A stretch of DNA of 64,000 bases from Azonexus sp. (lineage in GTDB: Bacteria > Pseudomonadota > Gammaproteobacteria > Burkholderiales > Rhodocyclaceae), in the NCBI GenBank assembly GCA_030824535.1, contig JAVBXO010000022.1, positions 1,138 to 65,137 of the forward strand. Direction: 5' to 3'. This document shows, piece by piece, positions 5,212-20,716 of the stretch; positions within the stretch are counted from its first letter, which is position 1; each line of letters starts with the position of its first letter. The notes beneath the pieces are model-generated. The model searched no databases. It saw nothing but the letters and a program-made list of their open reading frames with translations, and was not told where the DNA came from. Position numbers and translations under genes: made by a program.

Positions 5212-6951
5212 TCAGCCTCGTCCAGTCAAATGGGGCTTTAGCAGCTTGCTAATCAATTGCCGAGTTTCTCGCTCACTTTTCCGATAGCTCTCCAACAAAC
5301 CTCTTACTCGTTCACATTCAAGGAAATAAAGCTCCAACTCCTCCTGAACCTGATGCAATTGCAACAGCATCAATTCGCTGTCGCTTCTCAATTCCGAAAT
5401 TTGTGTTTCTTTTTCCGCCAGCAGAATATTCTTCTCCTTTTCGAGCGCAGCCTGTTTTTCAGCAAGCGCCTTCTGTGTCAAGAGATGGTTCTCGTGGCCC
5501 TTCTGGGCTTCATGCAGTTGCGCCTGCATGGATTTCTTTTTATTTATCAGCTCGACAATTTTTGCCTCTGCATTAGCCAGGGAATCAGATAGCCTCTTCT
5601 GATCGAGCAACAGAAGGTTTTTTTCTTTCTCACACAGTTCCAATTTGCCAGCCAGCGTTTTTTGCAACAAGAACTGCGTCTCACACTCCTCCTGGACCTG
5701 ATGTAATTGCAAAAGCATCAGTTCGGATTCATTTTGCAATTCAATTACTCGATCTTCATGTTTTTTCAGTGATACAGCCTGCGCATCATGGTTGGCAAGC
5801 AAATGTTTATTGTCCTTTTCAGCAGCCGCCAATTTTATTGCATTATCTTTCTGTAGCAGCGCCTGAACCTCCAACGACTCCTGCAATTGATGCAACTGCA
5901 ATAGAGCCAATTCCAACTCAGCTTGCACATCAATAATTTGCTGCTCCCGCTTGTTCACCAGATCAAGCTGTGCCTGCTTATCAATCAGACATCGCTCTTT
6001 TTCTTTTGCCAGAGCTTCCATATCAGCGATTATTTTTTTGTGTTCGGTCTGTTGGACCTTGGACATTTTTTGCGTTTTCAGTTGATCGGCCAATACCGCC
6101 TCGTGTCGCTCTTCCGAAATACGCAACTGCTGCGCCGCAATTTTATTTTTTTCCACCAGCTGCAGGGAGACCAATTGCTGCTCGAGAGCCTTCAGGGAAA
6201 GAGTTTTCAAGTCCAGCTCGGCGAGCTCTTTTTTCCTGATACCGACAGGAAGCGCTGCAGCCTCCAAGTTCAGGAATAATTGGTGACACTCAGGATAGGC
6301 CTGAGCTAGCGCTGTCAGCAGAAACTCTTCGTCGGCTGCAGCATCCTGTCCGAAATCGTTTGCTTCATTCAGGAGGCAAGCGAAAAATGCCTCCGGCAAT
6401 ATTCCCTTGGCAAAAGACTTGGATCCCTCCAGTTTTTTGCGTAATGCGGCAGCGGATTCTTCCGTTGTGTCATCAAGGCGAAGCAGCAAGGCTTTTTTGG
6501 GGTGAGCATGATAAATATCGAGGAACTTTTGGTGATAAGCCAGCCAGTTCTCCATCGCCTGACGAAGAGTCGTTCCCAAATCAGGTAAATCACTCTTCCC
6601 TTGAATGCTTTTCAGGACAGAGAGCGGACTTTGATAAAAAAGCAGATAGCTGCCAGCGAGACAACCATCCCAACTTTCATAAGTCCAGACCAAGGAAGCA
6701 TCGGCGCAAAAGAATTTGGTGTCAGCTTTCTTCCTGCCCCCCGCCGCTTCCGGCAAGATTCCGGCGATTTCTCCGGCAAGATCAATCGACCCGGATGATT
6801 CAACAGGCGTCCGGTCCTGAAGCTGTCGGGAGAGCCGATGCTGCACCTGAGAGATCTTTTCCGTAAGTGCTTCCGAGTTTTTACTACAAAAATTCGTAAC
6901 TTTATCGAACAAGGCTCCGGGCATGCCGGCAATCCACAAAGGCTTTAGCAT
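5212..6951 (-). CDS. Coiled-coil protein with ELMLLQLHQVQEE repeats and a degenerate sulfotransferase-like N-domain
   Basis: Long K/E/Q/L-rich heptad region with repeated SELMLLQLHQVQEE. N-terminal LLFYQSP...WLAYHQKFL segment. Confidence 0.6.
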   Translation of the reverse strand: MLKPLWIAGMPGALFDKVTNFCSKNSEALTEKISQVQHRLSRQLQDRTPVESSGSIDLAGEIAGILPEAAGGRKKADTKFFCADASLVWTYESWDGCLAGSYLLFYQSPLSVLKSIQGKSDLPDLGTTLRQAMENWLAYHQKFLDIYHAHPKKALLLRLDDTTEESAAALRKKLEGSKSFAKGILPEAFFACLLNEANDFGQDAAADEEFLLTALAQAYPECHQLFLNLEAAALPVGIRKKELAELDLKTLSLKALEQQLVSLQLVEKNKIAAQQLRISEERHEAVLADQLKTQKMSKVQQTEHKKIIADMEALAKEKERCLIDKQAQLDLVNKREQQIIDVQAELELALLQLHQLQESLEVQALLQKDNAIKLAAAEKDNKHLLANHDAQAVSLKKHEDRVIELQNESELMLLQLHQVQEECETQFLLQKTLAGKLELCEKEKNLLLLDQKRLSDSLANAEAKIVELINKKKSMQAQLHEAQKGHENHLLTQKALAEKQAALEKEKNILLAEKETQISELRSDSELMLLQLHQVQEELELYFLECERVRGLLESYRKSERETRQLISKLLKPHLTGRG

Positions 6952-7060
6952 TTAAAGAGGTTCCAACAAATTAGTTTAAACATGCCATCAATCCGCAGCG
7001 AACCAATGACCGGAAGCAATTAATAAAAATAGAATCTCGACCAGTAGCATCACTGATGAG

Positions 7061-7090
7061 AAAAATACCTGATTTAAAAATACCTGATTT
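7061..7090. repeat. 15-bp perfect tandem direct repeat
   Basis: AAAAATACCTGATTT x2 (7061-7075, 7076-7090). Confidence 0.9.
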
Positions 7091-7644
7091 TTTACCAGTC
7101 AGAACCAAGGCGCAGAGCTGTCTAATACAGGACCATGCAAGATAACTTGAGATGGGTCATCTTTGACAAATCCGGTAAGGATTGGCTGCAGCATCTGCCT
7201 TACAAATATCAGCAAGCGCTTGAAATCTAAAACGAACAGCAGCACACGACACCGGAATAATCAAGCTTGGCAAAAAAACACTCACAAATTCCCCAACAAT
7301 CTTTTCCCCGCCAGCATTAATTCATAAAACCCATAGAATCCATAACCAGGCACAACAAGCTGGCAAACAAAAACCATTCAAAAAAAGCAGATCAAAAGCA
7401 GAAAATCGGCTTCAAGCCTATGGAAAAATCATGCACGCAGATAAACAAGGTTCATGATGCATCTTCACATACGTAATAGTTTCATGAGCCAACATGAGCC
7501 TGTCCTGCCATATATGAAACCAGCCATTCATGATGTTACCTTAAGGCAGGGGGCTTTGACCATGTGAAGTAGCGCCGGGAACTGAAAGCGAAAGCCTGGT
7601 CGTGGATTTCTCAATCTTCATCTGACGCAAACGCGGAAGCCTTG

Positions 7645-9620: not shown

Positions 9621-10169
9621 TCAATCGTAATGCATCAGGCCGTGGCCCAGTTCCGGCTCGCGCCCGGCCAGCAGATCGGTCAGCACTTTCCAGATCGCAT
9701 CGGCGGAAGGCGGGCAGCCAGGAATGAAGTAATCAATCTTGACCACCTCATGGATCGGATGCACCTGATCAAGTGGCAAGGGCAGCTCCGGATCATTGGG
9801 AATCATGCCATTGGTCAGCCCGGGGCTGGTGTGATAAACCTCTTCGAGAATCGCCGCCAGCGACAGATGATTGCGCTGCGCTGGCAAGCCGCCGTTGATC
9901 GCACAGGCGCCGATGGCGATGAGGATCTTGCAGTTCTGGCGAAACTCGCGCAGCACATGCACATTCTCGGCATTGCACAAACCGCCCTCGATGATGCCGA
10001 TATCGCAATCCGGGCTGACATGCTTGATGTCGGTCAGCGGCGAACGGTCAAATTCGATGTGTTCGAGCAGCGTGAACAGGCGCTCGTCGATATCAAGAAA
10101 GGACATGTGGCAGCCAAAACAGCCAGCCAAGGACGTTGTCGCGACCTTGAGCTTCTTCTTTTCGCTCAT
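9621..10169 (-). CDS. hoxY: NAD-reducing hydrogenase small subunit
   Basis: SLAGCFGCHMS, GACAINGG, PGCPP. Start reassigned to MSEKKK at 10169. Confidence 0.93.
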   Translation of the reverse strand: MSEKKKLKVATTSLAGCFGCHMSFLDIDERLFTLLEHIEFDRSPLTDIKHVSPDCDIGIIEGGLCNAENVHVLREFRQNCKILIAIGACAINGGLPAQRNHLSLAAILEEVYHTSPGLTNGMIPNDPELPLPLDQVHPIHEVVKIDYFIPGCPPSADAIWKVLTDLLAGREPELGHGLMHYD

Positions 10170-10170
10170 T

Positions 10171-10872
10171 TCACTTACCCTCCGCGACGATTTCATCAAT
10201 CGGCTGCTTGTCGTACTTGCGCTCGCCAATGGGTACGGCAAAACCACGGCGCTTGGGCAGGATGACGCCAACCGGGCAAACCTGCGCGGCCTTGTCGGCC
10301 TCGGCGAAGTTGGTATCGGCGAGTTTGCCCGAGCGGGCATTGACGATCAGGTGGGTATCGATGCCCCGCCCTGACAGCGCGAAAACGTTCTTGCCATCGA
10401 CATCGCGGCTGGCGCGCACGCACAGCGAACAGAGGATGCAGCGGTTGAAGTCGAGCAAAAAGTCGGGATGGGAGGCGTCGACCGCACGATTGGGGAAAAA
10501 GTGGTCGTAATGCGGGCTCATCATGCCCAGATGGTAGGCCGTGGCCTGCAACTGGCACTGACCGCTCTTTTCGCACGATGGGCAGAAGTGATTGCCCTCA
10601 ACGAAGAGCATCTGCGTCAGCGCCCGGCGCTCGGCATTGATTTCCTCGGTATCGCTTTCAACGACCATGCCGACCGCTGCGCGCATGGTGCAGGAAGCCG
10701 TCTGCCGGCCATTGACCTTGACCGTGCACAGCTTGCACGAGCCGTGCGGCTTGAATTCCGGGTGGTAGCACAGGTGTGGGATGAACACGCCGGCGCGGGT
10801 CGCCGCCTGAATGATGGTCTCGCCGTCATTGAAAGGAATGCTCTTGCCGTCGAGAGTGAGGGTCTGGCTCAT
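10171..10872 (-). CDS. hoxU: Diaphorase Fe-S subunit
   Basis: IPHLCYH, GSCKLC, HFCPSCEKSGQC, CILCSLCVRA. Confidence 0.93.
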   Translation of the reverse strand: MSQTLTLDGKSIPFNDGETIIQAATRAGVFIPHLCYHPEFKPHGSCKLCTVKVNGRQTASCTMRAAVGMVVESDTEEINAERRALTQMLFVEGNHFCPSCEKSGQCQLQATAYHLGMMSPHYDHFFPNRAVDASHPDFLLDFNRCILCSLCVRASRDVDGKNVFALSGRGIDTHLIVNARSGKLADTNFAEADKAAQVCPVGVILPKRRGFAVPIGERKYDKQPIDEIVAEGK

Positions 10873-12767
10873 GCGGCACCTCCGTTATGGGTCGTCAGGT
10901 GTGCGGCAGCATCGTCGCGCCCGGTCATCTGGCGGGCTGCTGCCAGCGCCCGGTCAAGATCGAAAGCCGGGGTGAAATCCTTCTGCATCATGCGCTTTTC
11001 GTAAGCCGGACGGAACTTGGCGATGGTATCGAGGACCGGATTGCAGGCCGTGTGCCCCAGACCGCAGTGGCTCATCGATTGCAGCAACTGGTTGAGTTTC
11101 TCGATTTCGGCCAGGTCGTATGGCGAACCGGCGCCCTTGTGCAATTTGTCCATCAGGTTCTTCAACAAGGACGTACCGACACGGCAGGGGGTACAGAAGC
11201 CGCAGCTTTCGTGCTGGAAGAAATGCACGTAATTGCGCGCCACTTCGAACATGTCGCGACTGTTGTTGAAAATGGTGAAGGCCCCGGCCGTCGGGATGTC
11301 CTCGAAGCCGATGATGCGGTCGAACTCATCCGGACCGATGCAGATGCCCGAGGGGCCGCTGACCTGCACCGCCTGCACATCTTCGGCGCCGCAGTCTTCC
11401 AGCACCTGGCGAATACTGATCCCAAAGGGGTACTCGTAGATACCAGGCCGCAGACAATCGCCGGAAACCGACAGCAGCTTGGTGCCTGCCGAATGCCTGG
11501 TGCCGATGCCGGCATACCAGTCGCCGCCCTTGAGCGCGATCAGCGCTGCCGCAGCGAAAGTTTCGACGTTATTGACGATGGTTGGCTGGTCGAGATAACC
11601 GTTGGTCACCGGGAAAGGCGGACGATTGCGCGGCGTGCCGCGCTTGCCTTCGAGCGATTCGATCAGCGCCGATTCCTCGCCGCAGACATAGGCACCCGCC
11701 CCGAGATGGATCTCGATGTCGAAATCCGCGCCGGGAATACCCAGGATGTTTTCGCCCAGCAGTTTTTCGCGCCGACGATTGCTCAGCACGGCATTCAGGT
11801 GGTCGAGCAGGTAACGGTATTCACCACGCAGATAGATGAAGCCCCGGGTTGCGCCGACGGCGTAAGCAGCGACGGTCATGCCTTCGAAGACAAGATCGGG
11901 AAATTTCGACAACAGCACGCGATCCTTGAAGGTGCCCGGTTCGCCCTCGTCGGCATTGCAGACAACGATGCGCTGCGCGCCCGCCTTAAGTTGCGCGTTG
12001 CGGCAGGCCTCCCACTTCAGGCCGGTGGTAAATCCGGCGCCACCGCGACCGCGCAGGTTGGCACGCTTGATTTCGTCAAGGACCGCCACCGGCCCGCCGA
12101 TGCCGCTAGGCAGCCCCTCGCGCCAGGAGCGCATGTTCGACGCCAGCAAACCTTCGTCAGGTGCGCGCGCCCGCGCTGCGAGCAGCGCCGAACCGGGTTC
12201 CAGATCGCTACTGAGCAGCACGTCGCTACGGCGAATATTGTCTTCAATGCGGAAAAACTCTGGAGGCCAGGCGCTCATCGGCACCCGTTCGCGGATCAGT
12301 TCGGCAACCCGGTCTATGCGCTCCGTGGTCAGGCCACCAATCGCGTAATTATTCACCAGCAGCGCCGGCCCCTGGTCGCACAAGCCGGTGCAGGAGGTCA
12401 TCGCGACGCTGACCAGGCCATCTTCCGAGACCTTGCCGGGCTCGATCCACAGGCTGTTGCACAGCTGGTCGCGCAAGTCGCGATTGCCGAGCATGCAGTC
12501 GGTGATGTTGTCGGAAAACAGCACCCGGTACTTGCCACGCGGCTGGGTGTAGAAAAAAGAGTAAAAACCGGCAACGCCCTCGATCTTGGTCCGTGGAACG
12601 CCCAGCGTCAGCTGCAGGCGATCGATGGCTTCCGGTGAAATCCAGTCGCAGGCTTCCTGGACTTCGCGCAGGATTTGCACCATACAACTCGGGTCGCGCC
12701 GGTAACGCGCCACCACCCGGTCGACGACCCCGGCCACGGCTTCGGCATGCATTTCGGTCAGTGCCAC
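10869..12767 (-). CDS. hoxF: Diaphorase NAD/FMN-binding subunit (NuoE-NuoF-like fusion)
   Basis: GRGGAGFTTG, CNADEGEPG, GAYVCGEESAL, ESCGFCTPCR. Likely GTG start at 12767 after GGGAGAG (alternatively ATG at 12752). Confidence 0.93.
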   Translation of the reverse strand: MALTEMHAEAVAGVVDRVVARYRRDPSCMVQILREVQEACDWISPEAIDRLQLTLGVPRTKIEGVAGFYSFFYTQPRGKYRVLFSDNITDCMLGNRDLRDQLCNSLWIEPGKVSEDGLVSVAMTSCTGLCDQGPALLVNNYAIGGLTTERIDRVAELIRERVPMSAWPPEFFRIEDNIRRSDVLLSSDLEPGSALLAARARAPDEGLLASNMRSWREGLPSGIGGPVAVLDEIKRANLRGRGGAGFTTGLKWEACRNAQLKAGAQRIVVCNADEGEPGTFKDRVLLSKFPDLVFEGMTVAAYAVGATRGFIYLRGEYRYLLDHLNAVLSNRRREKLLGENILGIPGADFDIEIHLGAGAYVCGEESALIESLEGKRGTPRNRPPFPVTNGYLDQPTIVNNVETFAAAALIALKGGDWYAGIGTRHSAGTKLLSVSGDCLRPGIYEYPFGISIRQVLEDCGAEDVQAVQVSGPSGICIGPDEFDRIIGFEDIPTAGAFTIFNNSRDMFEVARNYVHFFQHESCGFCTPCRVGTSLLKNLMDKLHKGAGSPYDLAEIEKLNQLLQSMSHCGLGHTACNPVLDTIAKFRPAYEKRMMQKDFTPAFDLDRALAAARQMTGRDDAAAHLTTHNGGAA

Positions 12768-12801
12768 GACACTCTCCCTAAAACAGGCTATGACAGCAAA
12801 G

Positions 12802-12842
12802 AGCCTAGCACTGATTACTGCGTCTTTCTTGCTCTGGATCAA
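12802..12842 (-). promoter_or_regulatory. FNR/CRP-family box and extended -10 of the hox promoter
   Basis: TTGCT-ctgg-ATCAA at 12829-12842 (9/10 match to TTGAT-N4-ATCAA), centred about -41 relative to TGc-TAGGCT (12810-12802). Confidence 0.65.
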
Positions 12843-12988
12843 ATATCCGAATCGTCCGGTTCACCCCAGCGTAATCTTCCCGTGCCAGAATGTTGCTGCA
12901 GCACAGCATCGATTTTTCCTTGCCATACGGGCTATTTGGCTAATATTTGATGCGGTGCATGACGATAATCCACTCAAGGAACTACAGC

Positions 12989-13792
12989 ATGAACACCCCC
13001 CTCGTCCCGGCTCCCGCAGCCACCGCCCTGCTGCCGCTGGCCGGCAAAAAAGGCCTGATCACCGGCGTCGCCAACGACAAGTCGATTGCCTTTGCCGTGG
13101 CCAAGGCCATTCGCGCCCTGGGTGGCGAGATCGCCATCACCTATCAAAACGACAAGACCGCCAAGTACACCCAGCCGCTGGCTGAGGCGCTGGGGGCCAA
13201 GCTTTTTCTCAAGCTTGATGTTTCCGAGCCGGGCAGCCTGGAAAACGTCATTGAAGAATGCGGCAAGGAATTCGGCGAAATCGACTTCGCCGTGCATTCC
13301 ATGGCCTTCTGTAACGCCGACGACCTGCACGGCCGTGTCATCGACACCACCGAAGCCGGCTTTGACTCGGCGATGAACGTTTCCTGCCACAGCTTCCTGC
13401 GCATGGCCAAGGCCCTGGAGCCGCTGATGGCCCACGGCGGCTCGCTGATCACCATGTCCTACCTCGGCGCCGAGCGCGTCGTGCGCAATTACGGCGTGAT
13501 GGGCATCATCAAGGCGGCGCTCGAATCCGCCGTCCGTTACATGGCCTATGACCTCGGCCCCAAGGGCATCCGCGTCTTCGCCGTCTCGCCCGGCCCGATC
13601 ATGACCCGCGCCGCGTCCGGCATCGCCGATTTCAACAAGCTACTCGAAGCCGATGCCGTCAAGGCGCCGCTCGGCCGTACCGTGACCATCGACGAAGTCG
13701 GCGCGCTGACCGCCTTCCTGTGCACCTCAGGCTCTTCCGGCATGACCGGCCAGACGATTTACGTCGACGGCGGCTCCCATATCGTCGCCTGA
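12989..13792 (+). CDS. fabI: Enoyl-ACP reductase FabI-type (paralog associated with pta-ackA)
   Basis: GVANDKSIAF, YGVMGIIKAALES (Y-x6-K), SPGPIMTRAASGI; RBS AAGGA before ATG 12989. Confidence 0.9.
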   Translation: MNTPLVPAPAATALLPLAGKKGLITGVANDKSIAFAVAKAIRALGGEIAITYQNDKTAKYTQPLAEALGAKLFLKLDVSEPGSLENVIEECGKEFGEIDFAVHSMAFCNADDLHGRVIDTTEAGFDSAMNVSCHSFLRMAKALEPLMAHGGSLITMSYLGAERVVRNYGVMGIIKAALESAVRYMAYDLGPKGIRVFAVSPGPIMTRAASGIADFNKLLEADAVKAPLGRTVTIDEVGALTAFLCTSGSSGMTGQTIYVDGGSHIVA

Positions 13793-13811
13793 GGCAAAAA
13801 CGCCTGATTCT

Positions 13812-13825
13812 TGCGGTCGACCGCA
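13812..13825. repeat. Palindrome TGCGGTCGACCGCA (also the core of 60418-60447)
   Basis: Perfect 14-bp inverted repeat in an intergenic position. Confidence 0.7.
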
Positions 13826-13889
13826 GAAAAGGGCTAATTTTCGGGGAGGGGCCACGCGCCCTTTTCCCGAAACGCTTTTGGAGACCTGC

Positions 13890-14465
13890 ATGGCCGATGT
13901 TGACGGACTACTCCCCGATCCGATCCCGGATCACCCTCTACTGCGTGGCCGCCAGGAAATCGGCCGGGGCGAAAGCACCATCGTCCTGGAAGCCGACACG
14001 GTCGATGGTCAGGAGCGGGTGTTCAAGGTCTTGTCTTCGCCCACTGATTACGCCTACTACACCGCCGATGATCGTCCGACCGGCCGGCATTTCCCGATTG
14101 TTTACGCCGATCACGGCACGGTTGGCCGCTCCAGTCGCGGCTTTCCTTTTCATGTCGTCGAGGTCGAGCGCCTCTATCCGCTGCCCGGCTCCGGTGAAGC
14201 GGCAGAAGTGGCGACCAAACTCTCCAGCTCCTATTTCGACGCCTGCCTGATGTGGCGCAATCTGGCTCACGATATGGGCCGCATTGCCCTGCACCACCTG
14301 ACGGTCACACCGATGGGCTGGAGTGACGCTGTCCAGGCCTCGCTGCAGGCACTGGAGGGCTTTTCCAACGACTACGGCGCCCTGCCCGACCTGATCAAGG
14401 CTGACAACCTGATGATGCGCAAGGACGGCACCCTGGTCTTTTCCGATCCGGTATTCATGGAATGA
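13890..14465 (+). CDS. Minimal protein-kinase-like protein (T7 gp0.7-like motif pattern)
   Basis: IGRGES Gly-loop, RVFKV Lys, HFPIVY, ERLYPL hinge, DLIKADNLMM catalytic loop, VFSDPV; GGAG RBS before ATG 13890. Confidence 0.65.
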   Translation: MADVDGLLPDPIPDHPLLRGRQEIGRGESTIVLEADTVDGQERVFKVLSSPTDYAYYTADDRPTGRHFPIVYADHGTVGRSSRGFPFHVVEVERLYPLPGSGEAAEVATKLSSSYFDACLMWRNLAHDMGRIALHHLTVTPMGWSDAVQASLQALEGFSNDYGALPDLIKADNLMMRKDGTLVFSDPVFME

Positions 14466-14947
14466 GCATCAACCAGGTTTCCTTCACTTCCCGCGAGCAC
14501 GCCGAGTCAATGTCTGGCGCGCCCGGCATTGCGGTGATTTCGATCACCGACCCCGGCAGCCCGCCAGCCCGCCTCTCGCCCTGCTTCGGGCCGATTCTGC
14601 GCTTGTCCTTTTTTGATGCGCTACCGGCCGACGAATACCTGCCGGCCCCCTTCCCCGGCTTGTTCGACCATCGCATGGCACGCCAGATCAATGAATTTGT
14701 CGAACAGTTGCAAGCCACCAGCGAGCACTATCAAGTGCTGGTTCATTGCGAATTCGGCATCAGCCGTTCGGCAGCCATCGCGCTGTTCGTCGAAGCTTGC
14801 AGCGAAGCGCCACTGGCGGCCCGGGAATTCACCGCCGAGGCCAATCAGTGGGTCATTGACAGCCTGTTGCGCGTGCGCCCGGATTTGCTCATCGACATTC
14901 CGACCAGCGTCGCCATCGTCGAGCGCCGCCATGCCGCACGGACCTGA
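14462..14947 (+). CDS. Cys-based protein tyrosine/dual-specificity phosphatase
   Basis: VLVHCEFGISRSAA (HCx5RS), AVISITDP, LRLSFFD general-acid loop; ATGA overlap with the upstream gene. Confidence 0.85.
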   Translation: MSINQVSFTSREHAESMSGAPGIAVISITDPGSPPARLSPCFGPILRLSFFDALPADEYLPAPFPGLFDHRMARQINEFVEQLQATSEHYQVLVHCEFGISRSAAIALFVEACSEAPLAAREFTAEANQWVIDSLLRVRPDLLIDIPTSVAIVERRHAART

Positions 14948-15007
14948 GGCCCTTGATCGGCAATTTGGCAAATTTCGATACTGAAAAGCCATTCCGGGAG
15001 CAAAACA

Positions 15008-16426
15008 ATGCCAAACAACAGTGACAGCACTTATCTCGACAATAAAACCTTCGATGAAATCAGGATCGGCGACTCGTCCTGCCTGAGCCGGACGCTGATG
15101 CCCGAAGACGTCAAGCTCTTCGCCATCCTGACCGGCGATTTCAACCCCACCGTCGTCGATCCTTCCTACACGCAAAGCAGCCTGTTCCGCGAGGTCATCG
15201 CCCACGGCATGTGGAGCGGCTCGCTGATTTCGACCGTACTCGGCACCCAGTACCCGGGACCGGGCACCATCCTGGTCGACCAGGCGCTGCACTTTGCCCG
15301 GCCGGTCAGCATCGGCGACACCATCACCATTACCGTCACGGTCAAGCAGAAATTCCCGCATAACCAGCACGTCATCTTCGACTGCGTCTGTACCAATCAG
15401 GATGGCCTGCAGGTCGTGCGCGGCACGGCAGAAATTCTGGCGCCGCTGGAAAAGGTCCGGCACCTGAAGCGCGGCGACATGCCGGCGGTGCGTATCGACG
15501 ACAAGCACGAGCGCTACACCCAGATGCTGTCGCGCGTCAAAGGCCTGGCACCGATCCCGACCGCCGTCGCCCACCCCTGCGATGCGGAATCCCTGAAAGG
15601 CGCGGTCATGGCTTTCCAGGCCGGCATCATCGAGCCCATCCTGGTCGGCCCGGAAAGCAAGATCCGCAGCGTTGCCGAGGAAAACGGTATCGACCTGTCC
15701 GGCATCCGCATCGTCAACGCCGCCCACAGCCACGATTCTGCCGCGCTGGCGGTATCGCTGGTGCGCACCGGCGATGCCGAGGCGCTGATGAAGGGCAGCT
15801 TGCATACCGACGAGTTGATGGCGGAAGTCGTCTCGCGGGCCAATGGCCTGCGTACCTGCCGCCGCATCAGCCACGTTTTCCTGATGGATGTGCCGACCTA
15901 TCCCCGGCCGCTACTGATTACCGACGCCGCAATCAATATCGCCCCGACGCTGGAAGAAAAAGCCGACATCATCCGCAACGCCATCGATCTGGCACACATC
16001 ATCGGCATTCCCGAACCCAAGGTGGCGATTCTCTCGGCGGTCGAGACCGTCAATCCCAAAATCCAGTCCACGCTCGACGCCGCCGCGCTGTGCAAGATGG
16101 CCGACCGTGGCCAGATCAAGGGCGGCATCCTCGACGGCCCGCTGGCTTTTGATAACGCCATTTCCATCGTCGCCGCCAAAACCAAGGGGATTGTCTCGGC
16201 TGTTGCCGGCCACGCCGAAATCCTCGTCGTCCCTGATCTTGAGTCCGGCAACATGCTGGCCAAGCAACTCGAATATCTGGCCAATGCGCTAACCGCCGGC
16301 ATTGTCCTCGGCACCCGCGTGCCGATTGTGCTGACCAGTCGCGCCGACTCCGCCGAAACCCGAACTGCATCGTGCGTCATTGCCGCACTGATTGCCCACG
16401 CCAACCGCAAAAACGGAACTGTTTGA
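15008..16426 (+). CDS. Bifunctional MaoC-like (R)-enoyl-CoA hydratase / phosphate acetyl(butyryl)transferase
   Basis: N-terminal FAILTGDFNP..IAHGM hotdog domain; C-terminal ALMKGS, DGPLAFDNA, LTSRAD. Confidence 0.9.
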   Translation: MPNNSDSTYLDNKTFDEIRIGDSSCLSRTLMPEDVKLFAILTGDFNPTVVDPSYTQSSLFREVIAHGMWSGSLISTVLGTQYPGPGTILVDQALHFARPVSIGDTITITVTVKQKFPHNQHVIFDCVCTNQDGLQVVRGTAEILAPLEKVRHLKRGDMPAVRIDDKHERYTQMLSRVKGLAPIPTAVAHPCDAESLKGAVMAFQAGIIEPILVGPESKIRSVAEENGIDLSGIRIVNAAHSHDSAALAVSLVRTGDAEALMKGSLHTDELMAEVVSRANGLRTCRRISHVFLMDVPTYPRPLLITDAAINIAPTLEEKADIIRNAIDLAHIIGIPEPKVAILSAVETVNPKIQSTLDAAALCKMADRGQIKGGILDGPLAFDNAISIVAAKTKGIVSAVAGHAEILVVPDLESGNMLAKQLEYLANALTAGIVLGTRVPIVLTSRADSAETRTASCVIAALIAHANRKNGTV

Positions 16427-16427
16427 C

Positions 16428-17609
16428 ATGAACCAAGGTATTTTGACGATCAATGCTGGATCGTCCTCGATCAAATTTGCCCTTTTCCCGCTCGCCCAGG
16501 TGATCTCACCGGACGCCGAAGTGTCCGGCCAGATCGATGGCATTGGCACTGCCGCCACCCGCATGGTGGCCCGGAACGGCGCCGGGGAAAAAATTGCCGA
16601 CCAGAACATTCCCGGCGAACAAGTCAGCCATGACCAAGCTTTCGACGCGCTGCTGCACTGGTTTCTTGCCAGCCACAGCGGCTGGGAAATCGTCGCGGTT
16701 GGTCACCGGGTTGTCCATGGCGGTGAGCGCTATTCCAAGCCAACGCTGATCGACGACACGGTCCTCGCCCACCTGAGCAGCTTCTTTCCGCTGGCCCCCC
16801 TGCATGAACCGCACAACGTCGCCGGTATCAAGGCCTTGCAGGCGCTGTTGCCGAACGTGCCGCAAGTCGCCTGCTTCGACACCGCCTTCCATCGCAGCCA
16901 GCCCGACGTTGCCCAGGTTTTTGGCCTGCCCAGGGCGTTGACCGCAGAAGGCATCAAACGCTACGGTTTTCACGGTCTGTCCTACGAATTCATCGCCCGT
17001 GCCCTGCCCCAGCATTCACACCGCGCCAACGGCCGCGTCGTCGTCGCTCACCTCGGCAACGGCGCCAGCATGGCAGCGATGGTCAATCGCAAATGCGTCG
17101 CGACGACGCTCGGCTTCTCGACCATCGACGGCCTGCTGATGGGCACCCGCTGCGGCAACCTTGATCCCGGCGTGATCCTGCACCTGATGGACACCAAGGG
17201 CTACACGGTCAAAGACATGACGCGGATTCTTTACAAGGAATCCGGCCTGCTCGGCGTCTCCGGCATCAGCCAGGACATGCGCACCCTGCTGGCCAGTGAC
17301 AAGCCTGAGGCTCACGAAGCCGTTGATCTGTTCTGCTATCGCATCGTCCGCGAACTCGGTTCGCTGGTCGCCGCTGCCGGCGGCATCGATGCGCTGGTCT
17401 TTACCGGTGGCATCGGCGAGCACGCCGCTGAAGTCCGCCGGCGCGTCGGCATGCAATGCGACTGGCTGGGCATCCGCGTCAATCCCGAAGCCAATGCCCG
17501 CCACGATGTGGTGATCAGCGCTGGCAACAGCAGTGTTGACGTGCTGGTGATCCCGACCAACGAGGAATGGATGATGGCCCACCACGCGCAAACCCTGCTC
17601 GCGCTGTAA
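16428..17609 (+). CDS. ackA: Acetate/propionate kinase
   Basis: INAGSSSIKF, GHRVVHGG, CFDTAFH, YGFHGLSY, HLGNGAS, FTGGIGE, IPTNEE. Confidence 0.95.
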   Translation: MNQGILTINAGSSSIKFALFPLAQVISPDAEVSGQIDGIGTAATRMVARNGAGEKIADQNIPGEQVSHDQAFDALLHWFLASHSGWEIVAVGHRVVHGGERYSKPTLIDDTVLAHLSSFFPLAPLHEPHNVAGIKALQALLPNVPQVACFDTAFHRSQPDVAQVFGLPRALTAEGIKRYGFHGLSYEFIARALPQHSHRANGRVVVAHLGNGASMAAMVNRKCVATTLGFSTIDGLLMGTRCGNLDPGVILHLMDTKGYTVKDMTRILYKESGLLGVSGISQDMRTLLASDKPEAHEAVDLFCYRIVRELGSLVAAAGGIDALVFTGGIGEHAAEVRRRVGMQCDWLGIRVNPEANARHDVVISAGNSSVDVLVIPTNEEWMMAHHAQTLLAL

Positions 17610-17626
17610 ATATTTTTTCTCCCTTC

Positions 17627-17663
17627 GGCCCCGGCCCCGAAAGGCGCCGGGGCCTTGTTTTTT
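17627..17663 (+). terminator. Intrinsic terminator after ackA
   Basis: GGCCCCGGC...GCCGGGGCC followed by TTGTTTTTT. Confidence 0.75.
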
Positions 17664-17710
17664 CGGGGCTTTTCGCACTATGCCAAAAGTATAATCATCA
17701 CGGACACAAA

Positions 17711-17757
17711 ACACTGCATCTAGTCAACACCTTCCGAAAAAACACTAGATATAGTAG
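17711..17757. promoter_or_regulatory. Tandem NrdR boxes
   Basis: ACACTGCATCTAGTCA (17711-17726) and ACACTAGATATAGTAG (17742-17757), 31 bp apart, match acaCwAtATaTwGtg upstream of an RNR gene. Confidence 0.8.
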
Positions 17758-17815
17758 ATTGCGCCCATTCGAACACTAGCAATCCCACCGCAGGATTGCC
17801 CAGAGAGGAACCGCC

Positions 17816-20716
17816 ATGATCAAAGTTGCCGAGCAGCTTTCGCTGACCGACATCCCCGCCCCGCCGCTGTTTTCGCCGCTGCCGGAGCAGGAAATTTCCG
17901 CCGAAGTGCTGATCGAAAAGTACGCCAAGGGTAAGGAAACCAACGTCCACGACGTGCGCAAGCGCGTCGCCTGGGCGCTGGCCCAGATCGAGCAGGAAAA
18001 GGATCGCGCCCACTGGGAAGCCAAGTTCCTGTGGGCCCAGGAAAACGGCTTCATCCCGGCCGGCCGCATCAACTCCGCCGCCGGCACCGACCTGCAAGCG
18101 ACGCTGATCAACTGCTTCGTGCAGCCGGTCGGCGACTCCATCGTTGAAACCACCGATGGCAAACCCGGCATCTACACCGCGCTGGCCCAAGCCGCTGAAA
18201 CCATGCGTCGCGGTGGCGGCGTCGGCTACGATTTCTCGTCGATCCGTCCGCAAGGCGCTCACGTCAAAGGCACCCAATCGCGCGCCTCCGGCCCGGTGTC
18301 CTATATGCGCGTCTTTGACCGCTCCTGCGAGACCGTCGAATCGGCTGGCGCCCGTCGTGGCGCGCAAATGGGCGTACTGCGCTGCGACCATCCGGACATC
18401 GAGGAATTCATCCACGCCAAGGATCATGGCGATCTGACCAATTTCAACATTTCAATTGGTGTGACCGACGGCTTCATGCTGGCCGTCGACGAAGACAAGG
18501 ATGTCGAACTGATCCATCGCGCCGAGCCGAATGGCGAAATGCGTGCGACGGGTGCTTATCAGCGTGACGACGGAATGTGGGTTTACCGCAAGGTCCGGGC
18601 GCGTGACCTGTGGGATCAGGTCATGAAATCGACCTACGACCACGCCGAACCGGGCATCCTGTTCCTCGACCGGATGAACAAGGACAACAACCTCAATTAC
18701 TGTGAAGTCATCGAGGCCACCAATCCCTGTGCTGAACAACCGCTGCCGCCGTATGGCTGCTGCTGTCTGGGTTCGATCAACCTCACGCTGTACGTGCGCA
18801 AGCCCTTCTCCGAACAGGCTGAATTCGACTTTGCCATCTTCGGTGACGTCATCCGCGCCTCGACCCGGATGCTCGACAACGTGCTGGAAGCGACTCACTG
18901 GCCGCTTGAACGCCAGGCTCAGGAAGCCGCCAACAAGCGTCGCGTCGGCCTCGGCTTTACCGGCCTCGGCGACGCCCTGGCCATGCTGCGCCTGCGCTAT
19001 GACCGTGCCGAAGCCCGCGCCATGGCCAGCCGCATCAGCGAATTCATGCGTGACACCGCTTACCTGTACTCGGTTGAACTGGCCAAGGAACGCGGCGCCT
19101 TCCCGCTGTTCAATGCCGAGCTTTACCTCTCCGGCGGCAACTTCGCCTCGCGCCTGCCGAACGACGTCAAGACCGAGATCAGGAAGCACGGCCTGCGCAA
19201 CTCGCACCTGCTGTCCATCGCGCCGACCGGAACGATTTCCCTGGCCTTCGCCGACAATGCCTCGAATGGCATCGAGCCGCCGTTCTCCTGGACCTACAAC
19301 CGCAAGAAGCGCATGCCGGATGGCACGATCAAGGAATACGCGGTCGAGGATTACGCCTGGCGTCTGTACAAGCACCAGGATGGTGACGTCAGCAAGCTGC
19401 CGGACTACTTTGTAACGGCCCTGGAAATTTCGGCCAAGGCGCACAGCGACATGGTCGCGGCCGTTGCCCCTTACGTTGACACCTCGATTTCCAAGACCGT
19501 CAATGTGCCGGCCGATTACCCCTACGAAGACTTCCAGGATCTCTACATGCAGGCCTGGAAGGCTGGCCTCAAGGGTCTCGCCACCTATCGCCCGAACAGC
19601 GTGCTGGGTTCGGTGCTGTCAGTCAGCAGCGAACCGGCCAAGACCGACACGGCGGCCGCCGACGCCAAATCACCGCAAGATTTCGTCTCCGACGCCAACC
19701 GCCGCCTGTCGATCAAAAATCTGCCGGCACCAGTGCTCGCCAGCCTGCGTTGGCCGGGCCGCCCGAACCTGCCGGAAGGCAATCTGTGCTGGACCTACAT
19801 GGTCGATTCGCCGATTGGCAAGTTCGCGCTGTTTGTTGGTCACGTCGATCCGGATGGCCGCGCCTGGCCGTTCGAAGTCTGGGCCAACGGTCCGGCTGAA
19901 CCGCGTGGCCTCGGTGCCGTCGCCAAGACGCTGTCCATGGACATGCGCGCCAATGACCACGCCTGGCTGGAAATGAAACTTGAGGCACTGGCCAAGACCC
20001 CTGGCGATGCCTTCGAAATGCAAATGCCGCCGCATGGCGAACGCAAGCGCATGCCTTCCGTGGTTTCGGCCATGGCCCAGGTCATTCGCTGGCGCGTCGA
20101 GCAGCTCGGCGCCCTCGGCCACGATGGCCCAACACCGGTCAAGGATGCGCTGTTCAGTGCCCAGGAGCCCAAGACCGGCACCGATGGCACGCTATCCTGG
20201 ACGGTCGACGTCAGCAATCCCTCGACCAGTGAAGACTTTGTCCTCGGCCTGAAGGAAATCACTCTGCCGGATGGCGTCACCCGCCCGTATTCGATGTGGT
20301 TGTCGGGAAATTACCCGCGTGCTCTCGACGGTCTGTGCAAGCTGCTCTCGCTTGACATGCGCGTACTTGATCCGGCGTGGATCGGCATGAAGTTGCGCAA
20401 GCTGCTCGACTACTCCGAGCCGCTCGGCGATTTCATGGCTTTCGTTCCCGGTTCGCGTAAGCAGCAGACCTACCCGTCTACCGTTGCCTATATCGCGCAG
20501 CTGATCATTCACCGCTACGCGATGCTCGGCATCCTCGACGAAGCCGGTTTCCCGCTGCAGCAAATGGGCATTCTGGAAGCTCCGGAAGACACCACCAGCA
20601 ACAAGGTGCTGCCGACCCAGGGCAAGCTCTGCGGCGAGTGTGGCAACCATACGATGATCCGTAAGGATGGCTGCGACTTCTGTACGGCCTGCGGCGCTGT
20701 AGGGACCTGCGGCTAA
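17816..20716 (+). CDS. nrdJ: Class II (adenosylcobalamin-dependent) ribonucleotide reductase
   Basis: [45 protein letters not shown]; C-terminal CxxC...CxxCxxCG; no nrdB nearby. Confidence 0.92.

Follow-up and report, generated by a model that had tools for sequence, protein, structure and literature searches.

The window, a 64,000-nucleotide stretch of Azonexus sp. DNA (contig JAVBXO010000022.1), contains a gene for a short kinase-like protein and, overlapping it, a gene for a phosphatase, both placed between fabI and pta-ackA. The locus raises the question of what so short a kinase acts on among metabolic genes. A preliminary description had proposed a coupled kinase-phosphatase switch, serving either as a toxin-antitoxin or anti-phage module or as a regulator of the neighboring enzymes.

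Gene organization of the locus

Both open reading frames (ORFs) and all of the motifs described for the kinase (IGRGES, RVFKV, HFPIVY, ERLYPL, DLIKADNLMM, and VFSDPV, in this order) were confirmed; the kinase ORF (13890-14465), which GGAG precedes, stops three residues past DPV, and the HCEFGISRS loop lies in the ORF at 14462-14947. The features of the locus, in window positions, are as follows.

12920..12947, + strand: sigma-70-like promoter site upstream of fabI (9/12 matches)
12951..12959, no strand assigned: PhaR-like operator core YGCRNYGCR, immediately following the -10 hexamer (motif from PMC12542648)
12989..13792, + strand: second-copy enoyl-ACP reductase (FabI) of the PRK07533 type, from the kinase-linked clade and both likely substrate and predicted partner of the kinase
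within 12989..13792, + strand: FabI candidate phosphosites T57 (codon 13157-13159), T206, and S210, in the predicted interface
13890..14465, + strand: minimal T7K-like kinase, 191 aa (G-loop 25-29, K46, D167, N173, DPV 186-188)
14244..14297, + strand: kinase residues 119-136, a clade-specific helical segment predicted to dock on FabI 110-114 and 165-171
14462..14947, + strand: DUSP-like CX5R phosphatase, 161 aa (C96, R102, invariant D52)
15008..16426, + strand: MaoC-fused phosphate acyltransferase (NF006045 match)
16428..17609, + strand: acetate kinase, ackA (TIGR00016 match)
17633-17654: terminator-like hairpin behind ackA

The setting of the kinase, hox-fabI-pta-ackA-nrdJ, was chromosomal and neither phage nor prophage, and the GC content of the locus (60-64%) was the same as that of its flanks. 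The labels hoxF, nrdJ, phaJ, srkA, yaeQ, McrBC, selA/B, and proA are assumed from our own readings of the translated ORFs. The FabI of the window matched NF005717/PRK07533 with 394 bits (cut-off, 337). Gene order was compared in the best 80 of 248 relatives from a scan with one genome per species (the close loci), among which the closest named kinase relatives came from Dechloromonas, Azonexus, and Quatrionicoccus. The ATGA overlap between the kinase and phosphatase genes, although present in the window, recurred in only 11 of the best 80 of 248 related loci, the remainder of which had gaps of 2-151 bases. The MaoC-fused phosphate acyltransferase is probably encoded in the same operon in the window, and its association with the kinase was not conserved. 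Next to the hox operon, in a stretch of low GC (40-49%), the minus strand has a long ORF rich in coiled coil (5212-6951 and 7000-7499).

Sequence and predicted structure of the kinase

In the family alignment, K46, D167, N173, and D186 were invariant (25/25 members). Because 116 of 121 family copies terminate three residues past DPx, the short C-terminus is the form of the family and not a truncation; DPVF was present in 116/121 copies. The D-to-N spacing, previously noted to be one residue longer than that of phage T7 gp0.7 (T7K), was so in all 41 family rows, each of which had D-x5-N without a His, whereas 84 of the remaining 132 rows read D-x-H-x-x-N. The residue after DPV was Phe in 37, Val in 2, and Arg in 2 of the 41 rows, and Ser in none.

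The AlphaFold model of the kinase (pLDDT 95, pTM 0.89) ended at the DFG-equivalent strand, with neither an activation segment nor a lower C-lobe. Its best Foldseek matches were phage proteins, many of them named protein kinase (TM 0.5-0.67), and the PDB structures matched were kinase cores, over the part from the N-lobe to DFG (Foldseek E about 1e-4); a VIA comparison with solved kinases gave a middling score (Z 7.2, rmsd 3.6, 120 aligned). A profile of 142 rows aligned with T7 gp0.7 from the G-loop to DPV (P=95.8, E=7e-9), and the shallow 25-row profile, which reached T7 gp0.7 at E=0.036 only, matched the Asteriusvirus kinase with P=96.3. The fold of the model, the Foldseek matches, and the 142-row profile thus supported the earlier proposal of a T7-gp0.7-like minimal kinase core.

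The nearest family was PHROG 3809 (E=1.4e-8); among the PHROG profiles, PHROG 15752 was matched only at E=0.15 and PHROG 2828 not at E<=1. The kinase had no match in Pfam, NCBIfam, or PADLOC, and a PDB sequence search returned chance matches only. The Atlas gave a mostly viral cluster, 23% of its members with PF27024 (Phage_T7_kinase), at a score of 0.96; an Atlas cluster was automatically named aminoglycoside phosphotransferase. The 25-row profile found 312 representatives at E<=0.001; among 53 scanned, drawn from 150 of the 312, 52 matched PHROG 3809. The scanned set included 47 distant representatives, and 34 of these had a further match to PHROG 15752, which is annotated as T7 kinase. Hanks-type kinases have DFG and APE motifs and a full C-lobe; assignment to the Hanks-type Ser/Thr kinases was rejected on the missing Pfam and NCBIfam matches and on the end of the model at the DFG-equivalent strand. 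As judged from its sequence, the kinase belongs to the T7K-like group as one of its distant members and is not a close T7K homologue. It has the features of the broad T7K-like (DPV) superfamily, namely a kinase-like core fold, DP(V) in place of DFG, and the catalytic Lys, Asp, and Asn. One protein in the collection (P0164, 838 aa) carried three T7K-like kinase domains in tandem.

With T7K (PHROG 2828/15752), as portrayed in the accessible sections of PMC13645617, the kinase shares a collinear core, DPV at the DFG position, and the lack of a canonical activation segment. Unlike T7K, it is chromosomal and lineage-wide, lacks the shutoff domain and the Ser after DPV, has the D-x5-N loop without His and an extra clade-specific helix, and has a predicted dedicated partner, whereas T7K acts proteome-wide. 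It is too distant to be counted among the close T7K homologues of the PHROG 2828-based HMM search described in those sections (E<1e-10), and their S216 autophosphorylation site, Autographiviridae C-terminal shutoff domain, and phage or prophage location are all absent here; a further hallmark of those homologues is hyperpromiscuous activity on Ser, Thr, and Tyr. The PHROG 3809 proteins and the jumbo-phage and phage-plasmid kinases (Asteriusvirus UE-S1; Acinetobacter pABTJ2 type) resemble it in being stand-alone proteins of about 200 aa that end soon past DP, and the host kinase clade nests among them; they differ in residing on mobile elements and in lacking the 119-136 signature, and the three of their neighborhoods that were viewed held no fabI and no annotated phosphatase. 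Kinase-PolyVal (PF18762; PMC5512222, in part) has likewise lost the whole C-terminal subdomain while keeping the active site, but it is described as having an insert that precedes the Asp, together with a conserved His, and it occurs in polyvalent proteins of other phyla. The kinase had no Pfam match to PF18762, which a basal family member approached at E=0.061, below the cut-off.

Distribution, phylogeny, and selection

The kinase was found in 42 of 151 sampled Rhodocyclaceae genomes, as a single copy in each (that of G115 lies split across two contigs). There was one weak match in 391 other genomes of the order and none in the 400 genomes of a phylum-wide sample, in which the kinase was thus not found. 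Plasmids gave no match to the kinase query, and viral contigs yielded two weak relatives with the family profile and none with the query P0165. Because related genomes are not independent, genome counts here are descriptive and overstate support. A FastTree of 173 rows grouped the 41 rows of the family with 7 close proteins from metagenomes in a single clade (0.979) inside phage-like diversity. T7K-like relatives occurred on phages and on pABTJ2-type plasmids of Acinetobacter (146 records). One such gene, annotated as hypothetical (L205:5013-5774), is carried by pABTJ2-type Acinetobacter plasmids of about 111 kb. The sole copy found outside the Rhodocyclaceae (L161:5887-6531, genome G225) lay between McrBC-like genes and selA/selB, at a locus that looks like a defence island or a mobile insertion.

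In every third of the close loci (best 80 of 248; 25-27 usable per gene), median dN/dS was 0.11 for the kinase, 0.10 for FabI, 0.12 for MaoC-Pta, 0.17 for AckA, and 0.29 for the phosphatase; in 21 loci of a second lineage, which has a HAD phosphatase gene instead, it was 0.26 for the kinase, 0.12 for FabI, and 0.25 for HAD. Between the two lineages the kinase (58% identity) was as conserved as FabI (54%). These ratios indicate that the kinase, like FabI, is under purifying selection.

Phosphatases of the two lineages

The phosphatase of the window proved to be an intact DUSP-like enzyme, as previously suggested: C96, R102, and D52 were invariant in 38/38 aligned rows, the HCX5RS loop was present in 88/88 rows, and the model (pLDDT 88) matched the dual-specificity fold (Z 10.5, rmsd 3.3, 127 aligned). 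Pfam DSPc scored 30.7 bits against a gathering cut-off of 33.5 (E=3e-7), and the structure matches of the DUSP-like fold included enzymes for RNA, lipid, and inositol substrates. An obligate pair of kinase and CX5R phosphatase, as first supposed, was not what the gene-neighborhood survey revealed, since a CX5R orthologue was detected in just 10 of the 42 kinase genomes, adjacent to the kinase every time.

Orthologues of a HAD_SAK_2 protein (PF18143, above the cut-off) occurred in 25 genomes, 23 of which have the kinase; in 21 of these 23 the HAD gene was adjacent to fabI and divergent from it. The CX5R and HAD phosphatases are unrelated, stand beside the same fabI-kinase pair (21 loci for HAD), and were never found together in one genome. 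The CX5R phosphatase is likely the eraser in the Dechloromonas/Azonexus lineage only, a role and substrate suggested by its position. Among kinase genomes with no adjacent FabI (solo kinases), HAD_SAK_2 was absent from the 5/5 tested and CX5R gave one weak, unlinked match among 5 tested; one solo-kinase genome had a weak (25%) HAD match just upstream of the kinase.

The genome with the basal kinase (G137:C26) had four tandem HAD_SAK_2-like genes and a fifth nearby (L164:3563-5814 and 9720-10211), and a similar cluster was present in G064:C35. In G042 the HAD gene was convergent with an SrkA/RdoA-like kinase gene (L151:4904-6423), an alternative partner for the HAD phosphatase.

Linkage of the kinase to a second-copy FabI

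The fabI gene adjoined the kinase in 34 of the 42 kinase genomes, in three gene arrangements: 10 with CX5R, 23 of the HAD lineage, and 1 head-to-head with the basal kinase. In the close loci with enough flank (from the best 80 of 248), it preceded the kinase in 78/78. In two genomes (G042 and G123) the HAD gene survived kinase loss, fabI and the kinase both being absent from the site. A FabI of the PRK07533 type was present in 70 of 151 genomes, and the 38 unlinked fabI loci fetched had no kinase within about 3 kb. Many of these 38 retained fabI-pta-ackA, so the kinase and phosphatase genes sit inside an older cluster.

The kinase-linked FabIs formed one clade with none of the 37 usable unlinked FabIs inside. 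Its support (SH-aLRT) was 95 in a tree that combined 22 linked rows with 29 unlinked and 5 canonical ones, 8 near-duplicate unlinked rows having been omitted, and 88 when every one of the 37 usable unlinked rows was included; an earlier unrooted FastTree had placed 2 unlinked rows inside the linked clade, with a support of 0.17. A canonical FabI was additionally present in 5/5 complete genomes and in the window's own genome, which makes the linked FabI a second copy. The catalytic Tyr and Lys of this PRK07533-type FabI were invariant in 42/42. Taken together, gene order and phylogeny indicate that the conserved partner of the kinase is the upstream second-copy FabI and not the CX5R phosphatase or pta-ackA.

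Predicted complex of the kinase and FabI

The ESMFold2 model of the complex comprised one kinase and two copies of FabI, and an alignment of 42 rows was supplied for each. The ipSAE was 0.78 (runs 0.80, 0.73, and 0.78), and the best of three controls gave 0.00; the mark used, reached by 116/157 solved and 2/215 mismatched pairs, holds only roughly here. The alignments were row-matched and two FabI copies were used, unlike in the calibration, and the controls had no such pairing. The runs had at least 70% of contacts in common, and the partner pLDDT was at least 87. The G-loop and catalytic loop of the kinase contacted FabI in the model, with residues 27-29, 167-170, and 173 in the predicted interface together with segment 119-136, of which C119, W122, L125, M129, G130, and A133 were the predicted docking residues. 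Identity in this segment was 0.56-0.58 within the clade, solo copies included, and 0.08 to distant relatives. The area of FabI covered by the modeled kinase was the active-site mouth, in which lie the catalytic Tyr and the TRAASG loop, taken as the substrate-binding loop. The prediction supports binding of the kinase to FabI.

The hydroxyl residues of FabI in the predicted interface were S32, T57, Y60, Y158, Y168, T206, and S210. Position 57 was Thr in 107/107 kinase-linked FabI loci (some genomes counted twice), in 3/37 unlinked FabIs, and in 0/5 canonical ones. Two other candidates for a Ser/Thr specific to linked FabIs, T25 and S83 (full numbering), were dismissed because neither lies in the predicted interface, and T25 also because canonical FabIs have Thr there. 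Thr57 did not extend to the FabIs of solo-kinase genomes, only 1 of 6 examined having Ser or Thr (a Ser) at this position. In 4 of the 8 solo-kinase genomes only canonical-level FabI was seen, and the kinase there would therefore depend on a site common to all FabIs (T206/S210, for example) or on some other target. Taken as a whole, the kinase interface did not exceed the remainder of the protein in conservation (0.51 vs 0.56), and conservation of the FabI interface was equally high in unlinked FabIs (0.67 vs 0.70).

Proposed function and alternatives

We consider it somewhat probable that the kinase docks on the linked FabI, phosphorylates a Thr or Ser at the mouth of the active site, and inhibits the enzyme, and that the lineage-specific phosphatase resets it. 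Sequence, profile, and model agree on a kinase core with intact catalytic residues that lacks the substrate-binding lower C-lobe, and the adjacency of the kinase to one FabI clade is conserved. Helix 119-136 is predicted to replace the missing docking surface and to bring the kinase active site to the FabI mouth near T57, T206, and S210. A phosphate placed there may block access of the cofactor or acyl carrier, as with Thr phosphorylation in mycobacterial InhA, in which phosphorylation of Thr266 impairs enoyl reductase activity (PMC4014462, available part). The two cases would share Thr phosphorylation of an enoyl-ACP reductase, here predicted only; in InhA it is performed by general, unlinked Hanks kinases on a C-terminal Thr, whereas here the kinase is co-encoded, of phage type, and predicted to act at the mouth of a second FabI. 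The switch might gate NADH-consuming enoyl reduction according to the carbon-storage state through the PhaR regulon described below, and the mark would likely be removed by the CX5R phosphatase or, in the sister lineage, by the unrelated HAD phosphatase. Against phosphorylation of FabI count the 8 of 42 kinase genomes with no adjacent FabI, the absence of the T7K His, and the unremarkable conservation of the interface. Against the HAD phosphatase as eraser speak the divergent orientation of its gene to fabI, its adjacency in 21 rather than all 23 kinase genomes, and its survival of kinase loss in two.

The main alternative, which draws on the same linkage and interface data, reverses the roles: the FabI paralogue would be the regulator, covering the active site of a promiscuous kinase until released by NADH or acyl-thioester occupancy, and the phosphatase would reset the targets. 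A kinase devoid of the autoinhibitory Ser216 of T7K (0/41 rows) would require another brake, and it persists in eight genomes with no linked FabI. The same eight genomes, however, would then hold an unrestrained promiscuous kinase, and the linked FabI has retained both catalytic residues (Tyr and Lys) and scores above the cut-off of the FabI family. We regard this reversal as unlikely; the other alternatives fit less well.

A kinase toxin with its phosphatase antitoxin, or an abortive anti-phage module of the KKP kind, appears improbable. The phage-type kinase, the phosphatase directly downstream in 80/80 close loci (best 80 of 248), the faster evolution of that phosphatase (dN/dS 0.29), and its relatives in 62 Pseudomonas phage records are all in keeping with such a module, for which KKP offers a precedent (PMC11341870, in part). 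There, adjacent kinase and phosphatase genes are also found, but, according to that part, with two kinases, in prophages, and with toxin-antitoxin and defence functions, as opposed to one kinase at a metabolic site with replaceable phosphatases. The defensive role first envisaged for the Azonexus pair was not borne out: no PADLOC family was matched, the site is fixed among metabolic genes with host-like GC, and the dN/dS of the kinase (0.11) resembles that of housekeeping genes. With the query used, no CX5R orthologue was found in 32/42 kinase genomes, and in eight genomes no partner phosphatase was seen nearby; the solo genomes tested lacked HAD_SAK_2 (5/5), with one weak unlinked CX5R among five.

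Phosphorylation of RNA or of a small molecule (a nucleotide or a metabolite of the acyl pathway), reversed by the phosphatases, seems no less remote. HAD_SAK_2 is named after RNA-repair proteins, one Atlas cluster bears the automatic aminoglycoside phosphotransferase name, and APH and the RNA kinase ArkI were among the fold matches (Z 6.4 and 6.0). These Z values, however, tie with those of protein kinases, and the nearest named homologues are protein kinases. In APH-type enzymes the lower lobe holds the small substrates, and this lobe is absent here; the FabI link and the predicted interface would also be left unexplained.

We give little credence to inherited synteny, by which a kinase of unrelated function would have stayed beside fabI since one old insertion. 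A single ancestral insertion would yield one FabI clade and is compatible with the eight solo kinases, but the adjacency has outlasted the divergence of FabI to 54% identity, an inversion (G137), and changes in the flanking genes; moreover, fabI and the kinase were lost jointly in two genomes, and the complex prediction passes. Least credible is regulation of Pta/AckA at the acetyl-phosphate node: among the best 80 of 248 loci, MaoC-pta was within 6 kb of the kinase in 75/80 and ackA in 72/80, but the fabI-kinase-phosphatase block was inverted away from pta-ackA in 9/80, pta-ackA was near the kinase in only 1/23 HAD-lineage loci, and kinase-free fabI-pta-ackA clusters are common. The earlier option of a regulator of a neighboring enzyme was supported, the conserved and predicted physical partner being FabI, which the preliminary description had missed, and not Pta/AckA or the phosphatase.

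Origin of the kinase

If the kinase acts on FabI as proposed, its origin may lie in capture from a phage or phage-plasmid, a phage weapon probably turned metabolic regulator. In a fuller scenario, which we advance tentatively as possible though doubtful, a T7K-family kinase was captured once by the Rhodocyclaceae and tamed from a proteome-wide weapon to a single-substrate regulator. A new docking helix would stand in for the absent C-lobe and direct the kinase to one FabI clade with a matching Thr57, and unrelated Cys- and Asp-based phosphatases would have been recruited separately as erasers, yielding a post-translational switch on PHB-linked enoyl reduction in bacteria that denitrify and accumulate phosphate. 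Close T7K homologues are almost confined to phages, with five sporadic bacterial cases, and hyperpromiscuous phosphorylation may be incompatible with selective signaling, domestication being an open question (PMC13645617, 2026, in its accessible sections). Six Rhodocyclaceae names were absent from the searched supplements of that paper, Supplementary Table 8 (all homologues), which may list a member, excepted. Whereas T7K-like enzymes are known, as are switches made of a kinase and a phosphatase, a literature search returned no description of this pair or of a chromosomal T7K-like branch that spans a lineage and is linked to one FabI clade. With its candidate partner and sites, and with hosts in culture (type strains of Dechloromonas and Azonexus), this branch makes the question of domestication directly testable. 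If true, the proposal would give Proteobacteria a case of dedicated kinase control over an enoyl reductase, and would do so in organisms behind the denitrification and phosphorus removal of wastewater plants.

Regulation of the operon

The promoter site at 12920-12947 was the sole one found in 12700-17900, where 1.0 was expected by shuffling, and is weak alone. The only forward terminator-like site after the phosphatase was that behind ackA, in a scan at chance level overall. The PhaR-like core was present upstream of fabI in 71/76 close (best 80 of 248) and 21/21 HAD-lineage linked loci (12.8 and 3.9 expected). It was also upstream of 19/38 unlinked fabI genes (6.5 expected) and is therefore uninformative on the kinase. 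The genome of the window encodes phaR and phasins; the 9-mer at 12951..12959 recurs in it upstream of a phasin, and the core was present in 5/6 phasin upstream regions versus 253/1840 background regions. The full-length S. meliloti PhaR motif was discarded, being found in 3/76 and 10/21 loci and not in the window, so that only the core holds. Since the core lies upstream of fabI and phasin genes in a genome with phaR, the operon likely belongs to the PhaR (PHB storage) regulon, as a trait of the fabI type and not of the kinase.

Two further elements were observed. An FNR-like box with 2 mismatches to the consensus lies at 12829-12842, in the gap that separates fabI from the hox operon, which is divergent and encodes an NAD-reducing hydrogenase; boxes with no more than 2 mismatches were present in 61/77 close loci (best 80 of 248), a count with no shuffle control. 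The intergenic region at 13795-13889 contains a 14-base palindrome and a 9-base inverted repeat, and related loci have a shared short motif followed by a variable hairpin ahead of the kinase start; this region is possibly an internal promoter or an mRNA control element.
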